Source of the DNA: Methanomicrobia archaeon
GTDB taxonomy: Archaea; Halobacteriota; Bog-38; Methanoflorentales; Methanoflorentaceae
Direction of reading: 5' to 3'
Assembly: GCA_015661395.1 (NCBI GenBank)
Contig: JACWML010000010.1
Span: 2,499-66,498 of the forward strand
Length of the DNA stretch: 64,000 nt
Made by a program: the position numbers and the translations under genes. Position 1 is the first letter of the stretch. The number at the start of each line of letters is the position of its first letter. The notes under the pieces are model-generated. The model saw only the letters and a program-made list of their open reading frames with translations, did no database searches and was not told the DNA's origin. This document shows positions 24,371-31,010 of this stretch, piece by piece.

Positions 24371-25036
24371 ATGAAGATTGTTGGAATAAGCAGCAGTCCC
24401 CGCAGGAAGAACAGCCGAACCATGAAACTCGTCGAGGCTGTTCTTGACGGTGCACAAACGCAGGGAGCAGAGATCGAACTCGTCGATATCTGCGCGTTAG
24501 ACATCAACTATTGTATTGGATGCCAGGTGTGTTTCGCAAAAGGCGAGTGTGTTCAAGCGGATGATCTCGACGAATTGGTGGGCAAGATGCTCAGCGCCGA
24601 CGGCATCGTGCTCGGGTCGCCTGTGTACATCAACAGCGTGACCGCGCAACTTAAGACGGTGATCGATCGCATGGCCGATGCCATTCATTGTCAGCTGTTT
24701 TCGGGTAAATATGGCTGTGCCGTGACCACATCCGGAGGTTCCGGTACTGCAGACGTGCTGGGCTACATGAACTATTTCCTGAATGAACTAGGCGTCGTGA
24801 CGGTAGGGGAGGTCGGCGTTGCCCTTGGCAGGAATCCCGCTGCGCTTGATGCTGCCATTAACGAGGCTTCCAAGCTCGGAACGACGCTGGCAGAATCGAT
24901 CCAAACAAAGCGTGCCTATCCGGCGCAGGAGAAGGAGATCGCAGAGAGAAGAGCGTTTTTCGTGCGGCTAATCGAGGCAAACAGGGAGGAGTGGGCGCAC
25001 CAGTATGAGTATTGGATGGAGAAGGGTTGGATGTGA
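24371..25036 (+). CDS. iron-sulfur flavoprotein (ISF family, NADPH-dependent FMN reductase fold)
   Basis: Flavodoxin-like N-terminus (KIVGISSSPRRKNSRT), the compact Cys cluster CIGCQVCFAKGEC that characterises methanogen Isf proteins, and a GSPVY FMN-binding loop. Confidence 0.75.
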   Translation: MKIVGISSSPRRKNSRTMKLVEAVLDGAQTQGAEIELVDICALDINYCIGCQVCFAKGECVQADDLDELVGKMLSADGIVLGSPVYINSVTAQLKTVIDRMADAIHCQLFSGKYGCAVTTSGGSGTADVLGYMNYFLNELGVVTVGEVGVALGRNPAALDAAINEASKLGTTLAESIQTKRAYPAQEKEIAERRAFFVRLIEANREEWAHQYEYWMEKGWM

Positions 25037-25146: not shown

Positions 25147-25347
25147 GTGATAGCCATGACGAAAAAAGCGGAATTATACTCGAGGAGAAGAGAGATGTAC
25201 CGCTTGTACATCGCTAAGTTGAACATGTCAGACATCCTCGAGAAGCTTTCTGCCAAGTATCGCGTATCCAAACGGGCGCTGTGCATGGATTGGCGGAAGC
25301 GGACCCAGTGGGTATACGACGTCTTTGACCTCGAGCGCGCGTCGTGA
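25147..25347 (+). CDS. small HTH-like protein, paralog A (66 aa)
   Basis: MTKKAELYSRRREMYRLYIAKLNMSDILEKLSAKYRVSKRALCMDWRKR has a helix-turn-helix-like pattern resembling IS OrfA / terminase-small-type N-termini. It is about 75% identical at the DNA level to the copy at 26348. Confidence 0.45.
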   Translation: MIAMTKKAELYSRRREMYRLYIAKLNMSDILEKLSAKYRVSKRALCMDWRKRTQWVYDVFDLERAS

Positions 25348-25872
25348 CCCGTCAAATGCTGCCGTTGCGCGACAGTGTGCGGCTGCTATTATAGTCTCCT
25401 AACTAGTGTTGTCGGAGCTGCGGGTTCACGCGACGCAATCGCGGGACGCTCAACGTTTTTCTAAGGGTTAACGTGCATGTTTTTTTAGGCGCTAGCTTTT
25501 TTGCGTACGTCGAGCACGTGTATCCATTGACGTTGGCTGGCGTGCGAGGATCACCGACTGTGATACGCATTCGTGACTCTTGCTCAGCGAAGCGACGTGG
25601 ACTTTGAAAATTATCGACGTATGAAAAATTTTAGAGGTCAAATAAAAACAAACTGGGCACGAAACCAGTTGGAAACTAGTTTCGCACGCATCAAAGATAA
25701 GCTAGGTCATTAATGTTGTTGCAGGGCTATGGAAGCACCATCATTTACGATACAGGATTGGGGTGCATCCGGGAGCCCTCTGCCGAGGCCATCCACGTGG
25801 CTTCCAGTGCAGATGGGGGAATGGAGGTGAGACTACACGAAGAAACGCACGATAGCAGTCACCGTTCTCGTT

Positions 25873-26226
25873 GTGCTGATAGCGTCCGTGGGGTTCGCGG
25901 GAGCGGTCTATGCGCAGACGACGAATGCTACAACCAACACCACTTCAACGGCTTCAAGCAGCACGAGCAGCACAAGTGGGCCCCTCGGGCCGCTCCTCGG
26001 ACCGTTGCTCGGCACGCCAAATCAGAACACGAATCTCAACACCGTCTGCCACAACAGAGCAGTGAGGCACGAGCTGATGACGTGGTACAAGCAACTTCCC
26101 ACCGACCAGAAGAACGCCCTGCAGAACGACCTCAAACAGGCGGTGACCAACTGGTATAATCAGTTGCCATCCGATCAGCAGGCCAAGCTGCAGAGCATAG
26201 TGAACCAGACAAGCCAAGCGCAGTAG
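25873..26226 (+). CDS. small secreted protein with WY(K/N)QLP(T/S)DQ repeats. The start is uncertain.
   Basis: The in-frame upstream extension from 25831 (DYTKKRTIAVTVLVVLIASVGFAGAVYAQ) is a textbook signal peptide, but no ATG exists in that frame and the first GTG is at 25873. The repeats are WYKQLPTDQKNALQNDLKQAVTNWYNQLPSDQQAKLQ. Confidence 0.45.
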   Translation: MLIASVGFAGAVYAQTTNATTNTTSTASSSTSSTSGPLGPLLGPLLGTPNQNTNLNTVCHNRAVRHELMTWYKQLPTDQKNALQNDLKQAVTNWYNQLPSDQQAKLQSIVNQTSQAQ

Positions 26227-26347
26227 AGAAAAAATGAGGTGAGGGGCGTCAGTGCCATACTTCCCCCCTTGAGCTCTAAAGGATCCCCTCGCCTCTTCTC
26301 ACTTTATTCCCCCTTTTTTTTAAATTGCAACGGCACGAGGTAATGAA

Positions 26348-26593
26348 ATGCCGCAAAGGGAGGCCGCGACGAAAAAAATGGAACTCTACTCGAGGAGACG
26401 GGAGATGTATCGTCTCCAGATCGCTGAACTGCACATATCGGAGATTATCGACAGGCTCTCGGTGAAATACCGCGTATCGAAGCGGGACCTGTGGGAGGAT
26501 TGGCAGAAGCGGGCCAGTGGGTGTACAACGTCTTTGACCTCGAGCCGGCTCAGGTGCCGCGGTCGACGTGATGCGACTGTCGCGCGACGTTGA
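26348..26593 (+). CDS. small HTH-like protein, paralog B. Its C-terminus is shifted by a 1-nt indel relative to paralog A.
   Basis: KKMELYSRRREMYRLQIAELHISEIIDRLSVKYRVSKRDLWEDWQKR matches paralog A. After QKR, the DNA gggccagtgg (versus ggacccagtgg in A) changes the frame and gives a 20-aa unrelated tail. Confidence 0.4.
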   Translation: MPQREAATKKMELYSRRREMYRLQIAELHISEIIDRLSVKYRVSKRDLWEDWQKRASGCTTSLTSSRLRCRGRRDATVARR

Positions 26594-26784: not shown

Positions 26785-26977
26785 AATAAAAATTTGCAGG
26801 ACGTGATCATATAACTTCCGATTGGCCGAAGTGTCGAGTCGCAGTCTCACCGAATCGAAACCTAGGAGTAATTGATGCGCAATTCGGGAAAGAATAAGCA
26901 AGTGCCTCGTCTTTGCTTCGCTCAAGGAGCTTGCAACTGGCAAAGATTATTATCCGATGCAAGAGATTGCTACGTGA

Positions 26978-27751
26978 TTGTTGGTAGGACTTGATGTTAT
27001 GAAATGGCTTCGCGCAATACCTATTTTATGCGTTCTGCTACTGTTGTCGGTTGCGACCGCAGGATGCACAGCTAGTCTAAACCCGCCCTATATTCAATTT
27101 AACTCCTCCCAATCCTCGACAGGAACCCCGGCAGGAATCAACGCGCAGGGGACCACTAACGGAACCGCGCATATGCTTGCCGTGGAGCAAACGAGCGACA
27201 ACAGCTACTCAGGGGCCGTGTCTAACGTTGTCGTATATACGCAAGCTGGGACGGGCCACGTCTTTGTTGAGACCCAGCCGGCGACGGGCGTCGATTTTCA
27301 AGAGACCGCGAGAACTGTAGTAACCGTTGCAGCTGAGCGCGCTACCGTCAACGCAAATCAGCGAGATTTTGAATTCGTGGTAAGCGTGCCTAAGGGTGTT
27401 GACGAGGTAGATGGGCCAAGCGCTGGTCTTCCCATGACAATCGCAACATACGCGGCGATAATGAAGAAGCCGACCAATGAGTACGTCTATAGCACCGGAA
27501 CCGTTGACAGCAGCGGAGCGGTAGGCGATGTCGGTGGCGTTTTATATAAGGCAGAGGCAGCAGCACAAAATGGCGCTCGGGTCATCCTCGTCCCCTACGA
27601 TCAAACCGTCGTAAGCACTACTTCTCCGCTCGAAACAAACCCGACAACAGGGCTCGTAAACTTACAATCGCAGCTGAGTCACGACGGTTATAACGTGACG
27701 GTCGTCGGGGTAAAAACCGTCGACGATGCGTTACCCTACTACTTCAGTTGA
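26978..27751 (+). CDS. lipoprotein with a Lon-like (S16) serine protease domain and no ATPase module
   Basis: Signal peptide plus lipobox (LLLSVATAGC). Catalytic Ser motif VDGPSAGLPM and downstream GTVDSSGAVGDVGGVLYKAEAAAQNGARVILVP, with the Lys of the Ser-Lys dyad, match the Lon proteolytic domain. Confidence 0.7.
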   Translation: MLVGLDVMKWLRAIPILCVLLLLSVATAGCTASLNPPYIQFNSSQSSTGTPAGINAQGTTNGTAHMLAVEQTSDNSYSGAVSNVVVYTQAGTGHVFVETQPATGVDFQETARTVVTVAAERATVNANQRDFEFVVSVPKGVDEVDGPSAGLPMTIATYAAIMKKPTNEYVYSTGTVDSSGAVGDVGGVLYKAEAAAQNGARVILVPYDQTVVSTTSPLETNPTTGLVNLQSQLSHDGYNVTVVGVKTVDDALPYYFS

Positions 27752-27790
27752 AATGGTTGGCGCGCGCTAAGCCATCGAGGTAAACAAGAA

Positions 27791-28234
27791 ATGGAAGCCG
27801 TACTCAAACGGCGTCTAGAATTACTTATCACTTTGCTCGTTGTAGGAGTCGTGGCGGGAGCTGCCCTCGTCGTCCTCGGAGCAGAGAACGCCATACCAGG
27901 GACCAGCAATGGTTACATCAGCGTCGTTAAACCGCCACAGACGTCGCAATCGGCAGATCAACAGGCCCAGCAGCAAGCGCAATATGAAGCGCGCGTGAAG
28001 AGCCTCCTTGCGATCGCAGTGAAGGACGTGCGCGTGAACGCGTCCGTCGCCGGAAAGAACTATACCGTCGTGGGCATTCTCAGCTCGCCTCCCTCTTCGT
28101 CCGGTGCGCCTAGCATCGATTCTCTGGTGCTGCGAGTCGGGGGCAAGTTTTACAAGATCAACATCGATATAGCGCATGAGAATGTAATCTCTGTGGAGGA
28201 GCGCATCTGCTACGGTCCGGCGTGCAATGACTAG
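27791..28234 (+). CDS. membrane-anchored hypothetical protein
   Basis: N-terminal TM (LLITLLVVGVVAGAALVVL), a Gln-rich linker (QQAQQQAQYEA) and a C-terminal domain with CYGPAC. Confidence 0.5.
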   Translation: MEAVLKRRLELLITLLVVGVVAGAALVVLGAENAIPGTSNGYISVVKPPQTSQSADQQAQQQAQYEARVKSLLAIAVKDVRVNASVAGKNYTVVGILSSPPSSSGAPSIDSLVLRVGGKFYKINIDIAHENVISVEERICYGPACND

Positions 28235-28263
28235 CCTTAGGCCGCACGACGCGAGGCACAGTT

Positions 28264-28774
28264 ATGGTGGGGGGGGGAATTCGAGGAAAGACACTCTTTG
28301 CGGCAGCTGTTTTTATTGCCTCGGTGCTCGTGCTCGCGCTCAAGTTGCTCAATCCTACGCCGGTGCAAATCCTCGTTGAGGGCAATACTGCCATTACGAC
28401 TCAGGTCCCCGGGCTATTCACCTACGCCGATGTGCTCGTAATCGCTGTTGCGCTCGTTCTTATGAGCGTGAGCGGCACGTACATCTTGCTGCACGACTCA
28501 ACCACCCCTGCGGCTGCTGCGCCTGCGTCCGCCGGGGGACGTAATCCTCGAAGAACGTCGGCAGCGGTGGGAAGAGGTTGCCAGAACGCTTAAAGACGAT
28601 GAGCAGACCCTCTTCAAAGCAATTATCGACGAGGGAATCGTTCACCAGAGCGAACTGGTCGAAAAGACCGGCCTTCCGAAATCCAACGTCAGCAGAGCGC
28701 TCTACGGGCTGGAGAGCAGGGGCCTCATCGAGCGTAGGCGGCGCGGGATGGGAAATGTGGTGTTGCTTAAGTAA
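28264..28774 (+). pseudogene. membrane-tethered winged-helix transcription regulator (2 TM N-terminus + C-terminal wHTH), interrupted by a +1 frameshift in a G5 run at ~28534-28538
   Basis: Frame 1 gives the two TM helices and ends ...PASAGGRNPRRTSAAVGRGCQNA*. Frame 2 from the same point gives VILEERRQRWEEVARTLKDDEQTLFKAIIDEGIVHQSELVEKTGLPKSNVSRALYGLESRGLIERRRRGMGNVVLLK*, a clean MarR/PadR-like wHTH with no start codon of its own. Removing one G from gccgggggac joins them. Confidence 0.5.
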
Positions 28775-28998: not shown

Positions 28999-29379
28999 CT
29001 AGGGTGACCTATCTTTAGTATTCAAGAATCGAGGGAAAAACATTGGGGCGGTGCTTTTGTATACCAGATAACGCTCGCCAAAAATCCGCTCTAAATCACT
29101 TTCTTCGCTTCTGGCGATCCAATAGAGAACGCAGACGCAGGTAAAGGCCCAGATGAGTGCGAGCACGCCCCGCGAGAGCATAGCGACTCCAACGATCATG
29201 AAGATGAATCCGAGGTATATGGGATTCCTTGTTTTGGCATAAACGCCGGAGGCTACGAGGCCCTTAATGTGATATGTGGAGGGAATCTCCTTGAACGCTA
29301 AGATGCGCATCGCTACCCCGACGAGCAGCAGCGCGCCACCAGTTGCTTCTAGAGCGAGCGATCGGAACGAGGAGATCAT
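28999..29379 (-). CDS. isoprenylcysteine carboxyl methyltransferase (ICMT/PEMT) family membrane methyltransferase
   Basis: 3 TM helices plus the family C-terminal block (NPIYLGFIFMIVG...EESDLERIFGERYLVYKSTAPMFFP). An upstream out-of-frame ORF (29264..29473, MMRKTPSPRSRRLVVGIALLALGWASIVLSG) supplies a plausible missing first TM. Skipping one nt near 29388 would fuse them into a ~190-aa protein of normal family length. Confidence 0.6.
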   Translation of the reverse strand: MISSFRSLALEATGGALLLVGVAMRILAFKEIPSTYHIKGLVASGVYAKTRNPIYLGFIFMIVGVAMLSRGVLALIWAFTCVCVLYWIARSEESDLERIFGERYLVYKSTAPMFFPRFLNTKDRSP

Positions 29380-29565: not shown

Positions 29566-31010
29566 TCACAGGTGGAGCCCTTGAGCCACGCGTGCTCCGA
29601 GTTCGCTGTCTGCCTCGATAAAGTGATCCACCATGCGCTCCTGCATTGGTTTGTCGGCCTTCTCGAGTGAGTCGACAATGTTGTCGATCAGATGGTCTTG
29701 ATCGATCGTGCTGAGCGATCGGTACCTGTCGCCCGCTTGTGCGAAATCGTTCTTGAGGCTAATCTTTCGGCGAGTGACGTCCCCCTCGATCCGCTCCATG
29801 GACGTCGGGCCGGCAGGCGCTGCCTCCGGCGTGCCACCAGCGAGAGTGTTCGGTTCGTAGTTTACCGCTCCACGGAACGATCCTGATTGCATTGCGCCGT
29901 CGCGCTGGTCGTTCTCAACCGGTGCGTGCGGACTATTGATGGCGAGCTGTAGATAATTGGGCCCAAGGCGATGTCGCTGGGTGTCCGCGTACGAGAAGAC
30001 ACGGCCTTGCAGCAGCTTGTCAGCAGACGGTTCGATACCCGGAACGATGGCGCCGGGCGAGAACGCGGCCTGTTCTGTTTCTGCGAAGTAGTTCTCGGGG
30101 TTCCGATTCAGAACTATCTTGCCTACCGACATCAGCGGGAAGGTATCCTCGGGCCACGTCTTGGTTGCGTCAAGAGGGTCGAAGTCCTGTTTCAACTCGT
30201 CGACGATATCCATCAGCTGCACCTTGAGTTCGTACTCCGCCTCGCCTCCGTTTGCGATCGTATCCCAGAGGTCCCGAGTGAGGTAATCAGGGTCGGTCCC
30301 TGCCAAAGCTGTAGCTTTATGACGGTCAAGTGATTGGACGCCCAGCTTCGGCTTCCAGTGATACTTCACATAGCGCGCTTCCCCCGCTGCGTTGATCCAC
30401 TTGTAGGTGTTGACGCCAAATCCTTCCATCGTCCGGTAGCTCTTAGGCGTCCCGCGGTCCGAAAACAGCCAGGCGATCATGTGTGTCGACTCGGGCGTCA
30501 GGGAGATGAAATCCCAAAAGCGACTGTTTGCGGAGGAGCTCGTCGGGATGTTCGAGTCTGGCGCGGGCTTGAACGAGTGCACCATATCAGGAAACTTGAG
30601 GGCATCGCGGATGAAGAAAACAGGCAGGTTGTTTCCCACTAGGTCGTAATTTCCTTCTTCGGTGTAGAACTTGACTGCAAACCCTCGCGGGTCGTGCGCT
30701 GTGTCCGCAGATCCCCGAGCGCCGACGACCGTTGAAAAACGAACGAAGACGGGCGTCTGCGTTTCCGGATCCTGGAGGAACTTCGCACAGGTATACGGGG
30801 CCATGCTTTGGTAGACTTGGAAGTAGCCGTGGGCCCCGCCCCTTTCGCGTGTACGACGCGCTCCGGGATGCGCTCGCGGTCGAAGTGCGCGAGCTTTTCG
30901 ATCAGATGCACGTCTTGCAGCAAGACTGGTCCACGCTCACCGACGGTCAGTGAACTTTGGTTATCGGTGACGGGAACGCCTTGATTCGTGGTGAGGTGTT
31001 TGTCGCTCAT
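29566..31010 (-). pseudogene. katA: monofunctional haem catalase (KatA/KatE clade), split by a 1-nt indel in a G/C homopolymer at ~30831-30842
   Basis: N-terminal frame (30639..31010) reads [59 protein letters not shown] then goes out of frame. C-terminal frame (29566..30804) reads ...[64 protein letters not shown]... Adding one C to gggcccc restores [13 protein letters not shown], the canonical catalase motif. Confidence 0.8.

Follow-up and report, generated by a model that had tools for sequence, protein, structure and literature searches.

The stretch of DNA analysed here, referred to as the window, comprises 64,000 nucleotides (nt; 64 kb) of contig JACWML010000010.1 (positions 2,499 to 66,498) of a Methanomicrobia archaeon of the uncultured Bog-38 group, which is known from peatlands, and the system in question is a run of three genes on its forward strand together with a palindromic site upstream of them (Table 1). 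The first gene encodes a Lon-like protease of peptidase family S16, the second (mid) a small protein with a single transmembrane (TM) helix, and the third a regulator in which two TM helices precede a winged helix-turn-helix (wHTH) domain. The first-pass annotation of the window had proposed these three proteins and had read the protease beside the tethered wHTH as the layout of regulated intramembrane or site-1 proteolysis. When the loci of other archaea were compared, the unit that appeared to be conserved was the mid-type partner, the regulator and the palindrome, with the protease as an optional neighbour.

The regulator is split between two reading frames in the window. After repair of the frame, its C-terminal part matched Pfam DUF7343 (expectation value (E)=1.9e-10, 40.9 bits, cut-off 27.6) and MarR_2 (32.9 bits, cut-off 27). 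The AlphaFold2 (AF2) model (predicted local distance difference test, pLDDT, 66) places TM1 at residues 3-29 and TM2 at residues 54-77, joined by a beta-hairpin ecto-loop and followed by a disordered linker, one helix and the wHTH, and Foldseek aligned it with the wHTHs of MarR, ArsR and CodY proteins (E~1e-3, probability 1.0). In this model the wHTH is not surrounded by the classical N- and C-terminal dimerisation helices of MarR and nothing follows the wing, and the regulator is accordingly modelled as MarR-like in its DNA-binding domain only and not as a classical MarR protein. The ecto-loop of about 25 residues is nearly invariant among orthologues. The linker between TM2 and the wHTH varies in length, and tandem PASAGDII(T)AAA repeats were seen there in P0166, P0174 and P0182.

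The break in the regulator frame is one extra G in a short run (Table 1), relative to contig L091, which is 99.45% identical to the window over 6.7 kb and carries an intact regulator of 169 amino acids (aa). Nine indels, mostly in homopolymers, separate the two sequences over the 6.7 kb, and the genes that are broken differ: L091 has lost the frame of the flavodoxin, the window those of the regulator and the catalase. Because homopolymer indels are abundant and each assembly breaks its own genes, a sequencing or assembly error, or a slip at strain level, appears far likelier than an old pseudogene. Orthologues with an intact frame (168-216 aa) are plentiful, and a genuine pseudogene without intact orthologues, part of what would have undone the first-pass proposal, was rejected, the lesion being a single homopolymer indel that is absent from so close a relative. 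The regulator gene also has a run of nine G at codons 2-4 (ATG GTG GGG GGG GGA), and L002, L016 and L017 have a different 1-nt insertion near its 5' end, which suggests that this gene readily picks up homopolymer errors or undergoes slippage. In the window a frameshift breaks the catalase gene into two overlapping open reading frames (ORFs); it is intact (481-526 aa) in L005, L006 and L091. Given the split catalase and the nine mostly homopolymer indels against L091, long-read assembly errors are likely throughout the window.

The product of mid is anchored at its N-terminus. Its AF2 model (pLDDT 72) consists of a TM helix (residues 2-34), a disordered juxtamembrane linker and an ectodomain made of a helix and a four-stranded sheet. 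The family had no match in Pfam, NCBIfam or PHROGs, and the best Foldseek match of the model (E=0.17) was to amine-oxidase N-domains and NTF2-like folds. The pattern of one helix and four strands raised the idea of a PepSY/cystatin-like protease inhibitor, which was left unsupported when Pfam, NCBIfam, PHROGs and a PDB profile search all came back empty. The homologues of mid share a common core, EIAxKDSRVQEL..GKxY ... ILxVKVEGKxYxITIDLNxETVKSIEE, often followed by CYGP..C. Some orthologues (P0256-P0260) have insertions of 30-40 aa, rich in Pro, Ser and Ala, in a loop of the ectodomain. In addition, mid has two invariant extracytoplasmic Cys residues (CYGPAC), for which redox sensing would be speculation.

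The protease, when started at the likely ATG, is a product of 250 aa for which a 100% identical protein exists in public assemblies (P0001). It matched Pfam Lon_C (E=1.1e-11, 45.1 bits, cut-off 21.1) and the Lon proteolytic domains of the PDB (E=1e-13 to 1e-9), and its catalytic Ser141 (DGPSAG) and Lys184 (GGVLYK) showed no variation across 17 homologues, down to 27% identity. No AAA match was found in the 250 aa with Pfam or NCBIfam, and the protein fell far under the cut-offs of all LonA/LonB NCBIfam equivalogs (for example, 65 versus 723 bits). Judged by these profile matches, it is a genuine stand-alone S16-domain protein and not a Lon protease proper, which carries an AAA+ module. The N-terminus is lipobox-like, MKWLRAIPILCVLLLLSVATAG followed directly by C (ATAG, then Cys), evidence that is at the level of a pattern; the AGC is kept in all close-clade orthologues and paralogues, and more distant relatives have a plain N-terminal TM anchor in place of the lipobox. 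With either anchor the protease domain is predicted to be extracytoplasmic, and the window protease is a predicted lipoprotein with predicted peptidase activity. Thus far the architecture given in the first-pass annotation was borne out: a lipobox-bearing S16 protease with the Ser-Lys dyad and no AAA+ module, a same-strand single-TM protein between protease and regulator, and a regulator of two TM helices and a MarR-like wHTH, for which both Pfam matches were above threshold after frame repair.

The family to which the protease belongs is widespread in archaea and annotated as S16 or as 'S18'/COG1750-type; our literature search found no paper on DUF7343 or on the COG1750-type protease family. 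A paralogous lipobox-bearing Lon-like clade (L008, L027, L028 and L079; 47-60% identity) lies beside tandem CBS-domain genes with no regulator nearby, and both paralogues occur on one complete chromosome (L028 and L017). Across archaea we found no conserved neighbour of the Lon-like protease, the CBS-domain genes adjoining the paralogue clade only. The transcription factor B recognition element (BRE)/TATA-like element in front of the window protease is kept in orthologous loci with and without mid and the regulator. A 12-nt element near this promoter, considered as a possible operator difference between loci with and without the pair, is missing in L004 and L019, yet it is not kept in all clades that bear the pair.

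Table 1. Coordinates of the features of the locus and of related operons (positions in the window unless a locus is named; aa, amino acids)
Feature	Position	Strand	Remarks
sORF1	25147-25347	+	65-81 aa; motif ELYSRRREMYRL...YRVSKR..W.KR; paralogue of sORF2; kept in pair-less loci
GAAAC half-site	25661-25665		Extra half-site
Palindrome GTTGGAAACTAGTTTCGCAC	25668-25687	+	Predicted operator; no other site in the 64 kb comes within 1 mismatch of GGAAACNNGTTTCM
sec117	25873-26226	+	Small secreted protein; first gene 3' of the palindrome; signal-peptide-like N-terminus, Thr/Ser-rich linker, two WY.QLP.DQ helical repeats
T-run	~26310-26323		After sec117
sORF2	26348-26593	+	65-81 aa; same motif as sORF1; frame probably disturbed by homopolymer indels; lost in pair-less loci
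BRE/TATA-like promoter element GGCAAAGATTATTAT	26939-26953	+	~45-60 nt 5' of the protease ATG; role suggested by the archaeal promoter consensus
Lon-like protease	26978 (TTG)-27751	+	Likely start ATG 26999 (MKWLR...), giving 26999-27751, 250 aa
Lipobox Cys of protease	27065-27067	+
Catalytic Ser141 of protease	27419-27421	+
Catalytic Lys184 of protease	27548-27550	+
mid	27791-28234	+	N-terminally anchored single-pass protein, 147 aa; C-terminal CYGPAC at 28208-28225
Membrane-tethered regulator	28264-28774	+	Frame 1, 28264-~28533, two TM helices; frame 2 to stop 28772-28774, wHTH
Run of nine G in regulator	28269-28277	+
TM1 of regulator	~28291-28350	+
Ecto-loop of regulator, NPTPVQILVEGNTAITTQVPGLFTY	~28351-28425	+
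TM2 of regulator	~28426-28494	+	Flexible Ala/Pro linker between TM2 and wHTH
G run with extra G in regulator	28534-28538	+
wHTH of regulator	~28595-28771	+
Catalase	29566-31010	-	Overlapping ORFs 29566-30804 and 30639-31010; frameshift near 30830
Other coordinates of the oxidative-stress-type setting	28999-29379	-
Other coordinates of the oxidative-stress-type setting	24371-25036	+
Other coordinates of the oxidative-stress-type setting	L001 10619+
Palindrome-headed operons	L133:1465-7808; L135:201-6353; L144:1646-7102		mid-like protein of 285-289 aa; MacB/FtsX permease

A HMMER search with a profile of the regulator returned 1045 clusters (at 50% identity) at E<=1e-3 and 274 at E<=1e-10. Many members are full-length proteins of 150-205 aa with the same plan of two TM helices, loop and wHTH, and those with a named host include Altiarchaeales and Nitrososphaerales. 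From metagenomes we sampled 80 regulator loci of other archaea, which form 27 groups at 80% identity. The gene directly 5' of the regulator on the same strand encodes a protein of 100-300 aa with a single N-terminal TM helix in 57 of the 70 loci that could be evaluated, and a homologue of mid was recognisable in 45 of the 80; an additional, paralogous form of mid was found in L143 (hhalign probability 92.8%, E=4e-7). These counts establish that the pair is conserved. At 16 more loci the upstream partner is of a different, small Cys-containing family. The partner of this other type has the motif PxFVPAxAxVNSHS ... C..VNG and the same palindrome 5' of it (L094, L096, L111, L113, L117, L119-L121, L124-L126, L129, L130, L132, L139). 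Its candidacy as a homologue of mid (A11) was rejected, hhalign having aligned the TM helix alone, and it was treated as a separate family. In L159, L160 and L165, which make up the regulator group nearest to that of the window in a rough tree, there was no upstream partner ORF and ORFs were very sparse around the regulator. Elsewhere the neighbours of the pair are heterogeneous: among 149 neighbour proteins the only Pfam families that recur are ABC transporters (4), Lon_C (2) and archaeal flagellin (2).

Alignment of the regions 5' of the pairs yielded a 20-bp palindrome with the consensus GTTGGAAAC-NN-GTTTCCAAC, that is, GTTGGAAAC-NN-GTTTC(C/A)AAC, followed after about 10 nt by a TATA-like TTAAGG or TTATGG. 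With up to one mismatch allowed among the ten core positions, the palindrome lies 50-120 nt 5' of the partner-regulator pair in 38 of 68 evaluable loci, where its density is 1.67 per kb versus 0.084 per kb in the rest of the same loci. The perfect core did not occur once in 776 kb of protease-centred loci of other archaea. We regard both the conservation and the specificity of the palindrome as established. In the window itself the single copy is accompanied by an extra half-site and followed by an A/T-rich, TATA-like stretch.

In the window's own lineage the order protease, mid, regulator is kept in about 20 distinct related loci, the proteases of which are 60-91% identical, within a broadly syntenic stretch of methyltransferase, flavodoxin, small ORFs, protease, mid, regulator, catalase and FmdE. 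These loci are one orthologous locus and represent a single evolutionary event. The window's gaps are only 39 nt (protease-mid) and 29 nt (mid-regulator), and for this reason the three genes are probably co-transcribed in its clade. Every related locus that has mid and the regulator and enough upstream sequence also has the palindrome, 0.43-1.33 kb 5' of the protease, some with two or three copies.

Four orthologous loci (L004, L019, L022 and L023) retain the protease and have lost mid and the regulator. L023 keeps a remnant of mid (70% identity over 53 residues, E=1e-18), and L019 retains the spacer and the first mid codons. Since the pair-less loci fall inside the pair-bearing clade in a neighbour-joining (NJ) tree without support values, mid and the regulator appear to have been deleted at least twice, leaving the protease intact with its promoter. 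Moreover, L004, L019 and L022 are without mid, regulator, palindrome, sec117 and sORF2, and all three have kept the protease and its promoter. This pattern of loss is directly observed, and it is the strongest internal evidence that we have: because the regulator and the distant palindrome disappeared together from either side of a retained protease, the palindrome presumably serves the regulator as its operator and the protease is presumably functionally separable.

The first gene 3' of the palindrome in the window, sec117, was found only in loci that have both palindrome and pair. Where it begins is ambiguous, a conserved overlapping frame reading MEVRLHEETHDSSHRSRC, and the T-run after it may be an archaeal terminator. 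A CpxP/Spy-like LTxxQ chaperone is not claimed for sec117, the matches being sub-threshold (Metal_resist E=0.1, DUF3106 E~0.05) and the PDB search without a match. Neither sORF1 nor sORF2 had a family match in Pfam or PHROGs; the two flank the palindrome and sec117, and recombination between the copies could explain the deletion of the segment. A mobile-element or viral origin of the region was rejected, the small ORFs having no PHROG match. The locus is set among genes of oxidative-stress type, namely the catalase, a flavodoxin-like FMN reductase, a PEMT-like methyltransferase and, in relatives, a KatG-type peroxidase.

Across the sampled archaea a Lon-like gene lies near the regulator in just 2 of the 27 groups. 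Conversely, neither the regulator, a homologue of mid, the palindrome nor a shared neighbour was found near the Lon-like protease in more than 60 loci of other archaea (Bathyarchaeia, Nitrososphaeria, Methanoregulaceae (Methanoregula), Methanoculleus, Methanosarcina, Hadarchaeota and others). The first-pass annotation had looked to conservation of the three-gene neighbourhood across archaea; the order held in the window's own lineage, but most pairs of other archaea have no Lon-like gene beside them. A second lineage does associate the two. In L133, L135 and L144 the palindrome lies about 50 nt before a tight operon of a mid-like gene, a MacB-type permease, an ABC ATPase, a Lon_C protease and an H-lectin protein, and another copy of the palindrome precedes a small mid-family gene. 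In L143 a palindrome with one mismatch is followed by a homologue of mid and directly thereafter by a Lon-like protease; its close relatives L141 and L154 have no protease. In a rough NJ tree the regulator clades with a linked protease do not group as sisters, and their proteases are only 34-36% identical. Among the roughly 17 groups whose contigs were usable, 2 thus associate protease and regulator, against a rough chance expectation of about 0.2 (assuming 1-2 Lon-like genes per genome of about 2000 genes and about 12 neighbouring genes in each of the 17 groups). We conclude that the protease is probably linked to the system as an accessory, that is, as a co-expressed gene or a member of the regulon, and not as a demonstrated site-1 protease.

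Further, we propose that the locus encodes a membrane one-component system of partner, regulator and operator, to which a separable surface protease has been added, and we put the probability of this reading at roughly one half. The regulator would be held in the membrane by its N-terminal two-helix hairpin, with the C-terminal wHTH in the cytoplasm on a flexible linker, and mid would be the sensing or modulating partner, contacting the ecto-loop of about 25 residues or the TM helices. While still in the membrane and unreleased, the regulator may bind the palindrome (GTTGGAAACNNGTTTCCAAC) beside the TATA box, in the manner of ToxR-, CadC- and ArnR-type factors. The palindrome would head the partner-regulator operon itself in most lineages and the sec117 gene in the lineage of the window. 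The Lon-domain protease would act at the cell surface, independently of ATP and from its own promoter, as a co-expressed envelope enzyme, and in the second lineage as a member of the palindrome-headed operons, and not as an obligatory activator.

Several points weigh against this proposal. No palindrome was present at the threshold in 30 of the 68 loci, and that of the window lies 1.3 kb 5' of the protease with a T-run in between, so that mid and the regulator would not necessarily be controlled from it. Relatives of the L005/L006 type have a spacer of 225-246 nt with its own TATA-like box between protease and mid, and therefore co-transcription with the protease is not universal. Proteolysis would not require adjacency either, since the regulator could be processed by a protease whose gene lies elsewhere in the genome. 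The NJ trees carry no support values, and confidence in both AF2 models is modest (pLDDT 72 and 66). Finally, binding of the palindrome by the regulator, the part of mid as sensor partner and control from the membrane without cleavage are steps that we infer.

The explanations that compete with the one-component system differ in what they ask of the protease. According to the first-pass annotation, the Lon lipoprotein would act as a site-1 protease, cutting the ecto-loop of the regulator, after which intramembrane proteolysis would free the wHTH. A predicted catalytically competent extracytoplasmic protease does share one probable transcription unit with a tethered wHTH, the ecto-loop is nearly invariant, as a recognition element would be, and the association recurs in a second lineage. 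However, the loop is predicted to be a tight beta-hairpin, a cut within it would leave TM2 and the wHTH anchored, and, unlike in known systems, such a cut would not shorten a C-terminal ectodomain. Nor did the genes called in the window region and in the related loci include one for a site-2 protease (S2P), rhomboid or signal peptide peptidase (SPP); regulator and protease each occur mostly without the other, and the protease has outlasted loss of the regulator. Known membrane-tethered regulators, namely ToxR, CadC and ArnR (the last as cited in PMC13286277), act without release. We consider site-1 cleavage very unlikely, no result having spoken positively for it. The layout that had suggested it is not diagnostic of regulated proteolysis either, because in the classic systems of regulated intramembrane proteolysis the site-1 protease is usually not encoded beside its substrate. 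The earlier interpretation as a whole is partly supported: its architecture was right, the link of the protease is plausible, and regulated proteolysis is unsupported.

If the protease acted on mid instead, by degrading it, or if mid shielded the regulator from the protease, protease activity would set the output of the regulator. Of the two, mid is the one with a true ectodomain and disordered Pro/Ser/Gln-rich segments. Such a role would suit the disordered juxtamembrane linker of mid and its variable Pro/Ser loop, which has large insertions in some orthologues, and it would suit the two arrangements in which a mid-family gene adjoins a Lon-like gene, that of the window and that of L143 (regulator, mid homologue, protease); precedents exist in the degradation of YneA by YlbL (PMC6051672) and the protection of TcpP by TcpH, a single-pass protein that controls its proteolysis (PMC11323476). 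We hold it to be unlikely all the same, given that most mid-regulator pairs have no Lon-like gene nearby, that the protease outlives deletion of the pair and so has other substrates, and that an ABC transporter stands between the protease and the mid-like gene in L133, L135 and L144. At the other extreme, protease and pair may have no functional link, the pair having been inserted beside the protease in an ancestor and the order kept by descent. The roughly 20 loci of the window type would then count once, as a single orthologous syntenic locus; the promoter of the protease is indeed kept with or without the pair, the pair was lost with the protease unaffected, and elsewhere the pair has heterogeneous neighbours. 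Against this stand the second, non-sister clade, which has a Lon-like protease in palindrome-headed operons of two gene orders, the two co-localisations where about 0.2 would be expected, and the gaps of 39 and 29 nt, which imply co-transcription, and we regard mere descent as quite unlikely. A broader formulation is that of an undescribed archaeal envelope-signalling system, built around the hairpin-anchored wHTH factor, its single-pass partner and the operator, for which two or more lineages have recruited an extracytoplasmic Lon-domain protease that controls the partner or the regulator by proteolysis. We would call it tentative and rather doubtful; if true, it would be the first archaeal cascade from an extracytoplasmic protease to a transcription factor, with a logic like that of TcpH/TcpP-Tsp or YlbL-YneA.

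The one-component system leads to a result that appears more solid than regulated proteolysis, namely a membrane-tethered regulator, widespread in archaea and uncharacterised, that comes with a defined partner and a predicted operator. The analysis defines a widespread family, its partner gene and a specific palindrome, and it sets the conserved part (partner, regulator and operator) apart from a lineage-specific part (Lon-like protease, MacB-type ABC transporter and sec117), which points to an envelope-related regulon. To our knowledge, membrane-bound archaeal transcription factors beyond ArnR/ArnR1 are essentially uncharacterised, little is known of signalling from the archaeal envelope to transcription, and stand-alone surface Lon-domain proteases of archaea have not been studied.

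Among known proteases, YlbL of B. subtilis and SepM of streptococci share with the window protease the S16 domain with its Ser-Lys dyad, the absence of AAA+, an N-terminal anchor and extracytoplasmic action. YlbL consists of a TM helix and a Lon domain without AAA+, and it removes YneA, a small N-terminally anchored protein, outside the cell (PMC6051672). However, YlbL and SepM have a PDZ domain, whereas the window protease has no PDZ match and is anchored by a lipobox, or in its relatives by a plain TM helix, and its match to the SepM model NF041438 (E=6e-14, 51.7 bits) is far under the cut-off of 200, which places it outside these equivalogs. DegS/RseP-RseA, PrsW/RasP-RsiW and Tsp/RseP-TcpP likewise combine a membrane-anchored regulator with an extracytoplasmic serine protease, but the window locus has no linked site-2 protease, its regulator has no sizeable ectodomain, and protease and regulator are not conserved together. 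BcrR, in which an N-terminal XRE-type HTH (helix-turn-helix) precedes four TM helices and which has no partner, senses at the membrane and binds DNA without release, and it controls adjacent ABC transporters. The archaeal pair resembles it in lying beside or heading ABC-transporter operons in several lineages, and is unrelated to it in sequence.

The closest likeness is to ToxR/ToxS, TcpP/TcpH and PsaE/PsaF, in which a wHTH and a membrane anchor are joined in one polypeptide and an adjacent gene encodes a small single-pass protein located mostly outside the membrane. In one of these, the single-pass accessory protein TcpH controls the proteolysis of TcpP (PMC11323476, PMC8407435). ToxR-type regulators have an N-terminal OmpR-type wHTH, one TM helix and a C-terminal periplasmic domain, whereas the window regulator has the reverse order, with a two-TM hairpin, a loop of about 25 aa and a C-terminal wHTH of MarR/DUF7343 type; in addition, its partner is encoded 5' of it, it is unrelated to them in sequence, and its hosts are archaea. 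In Sulfolobus acidocaldarius, ArnR and ArnR1 are transcription factors with an HTH and TM helices that are active in their membrane-bound state (work of Lassak 2013 and Bischof 2019, cited in PMC13286277). ArnR differs in having its HTH at the N-terminus and its TM helices at the C-terminus, in targeting the archaellum promoter and in belonging to a different family, and the text consulted describes no dedicated single-pass partner gene for it. By analogy, the system of the window would work like the ToxR-type pairs and like ArnR, while being a member of none of these families.

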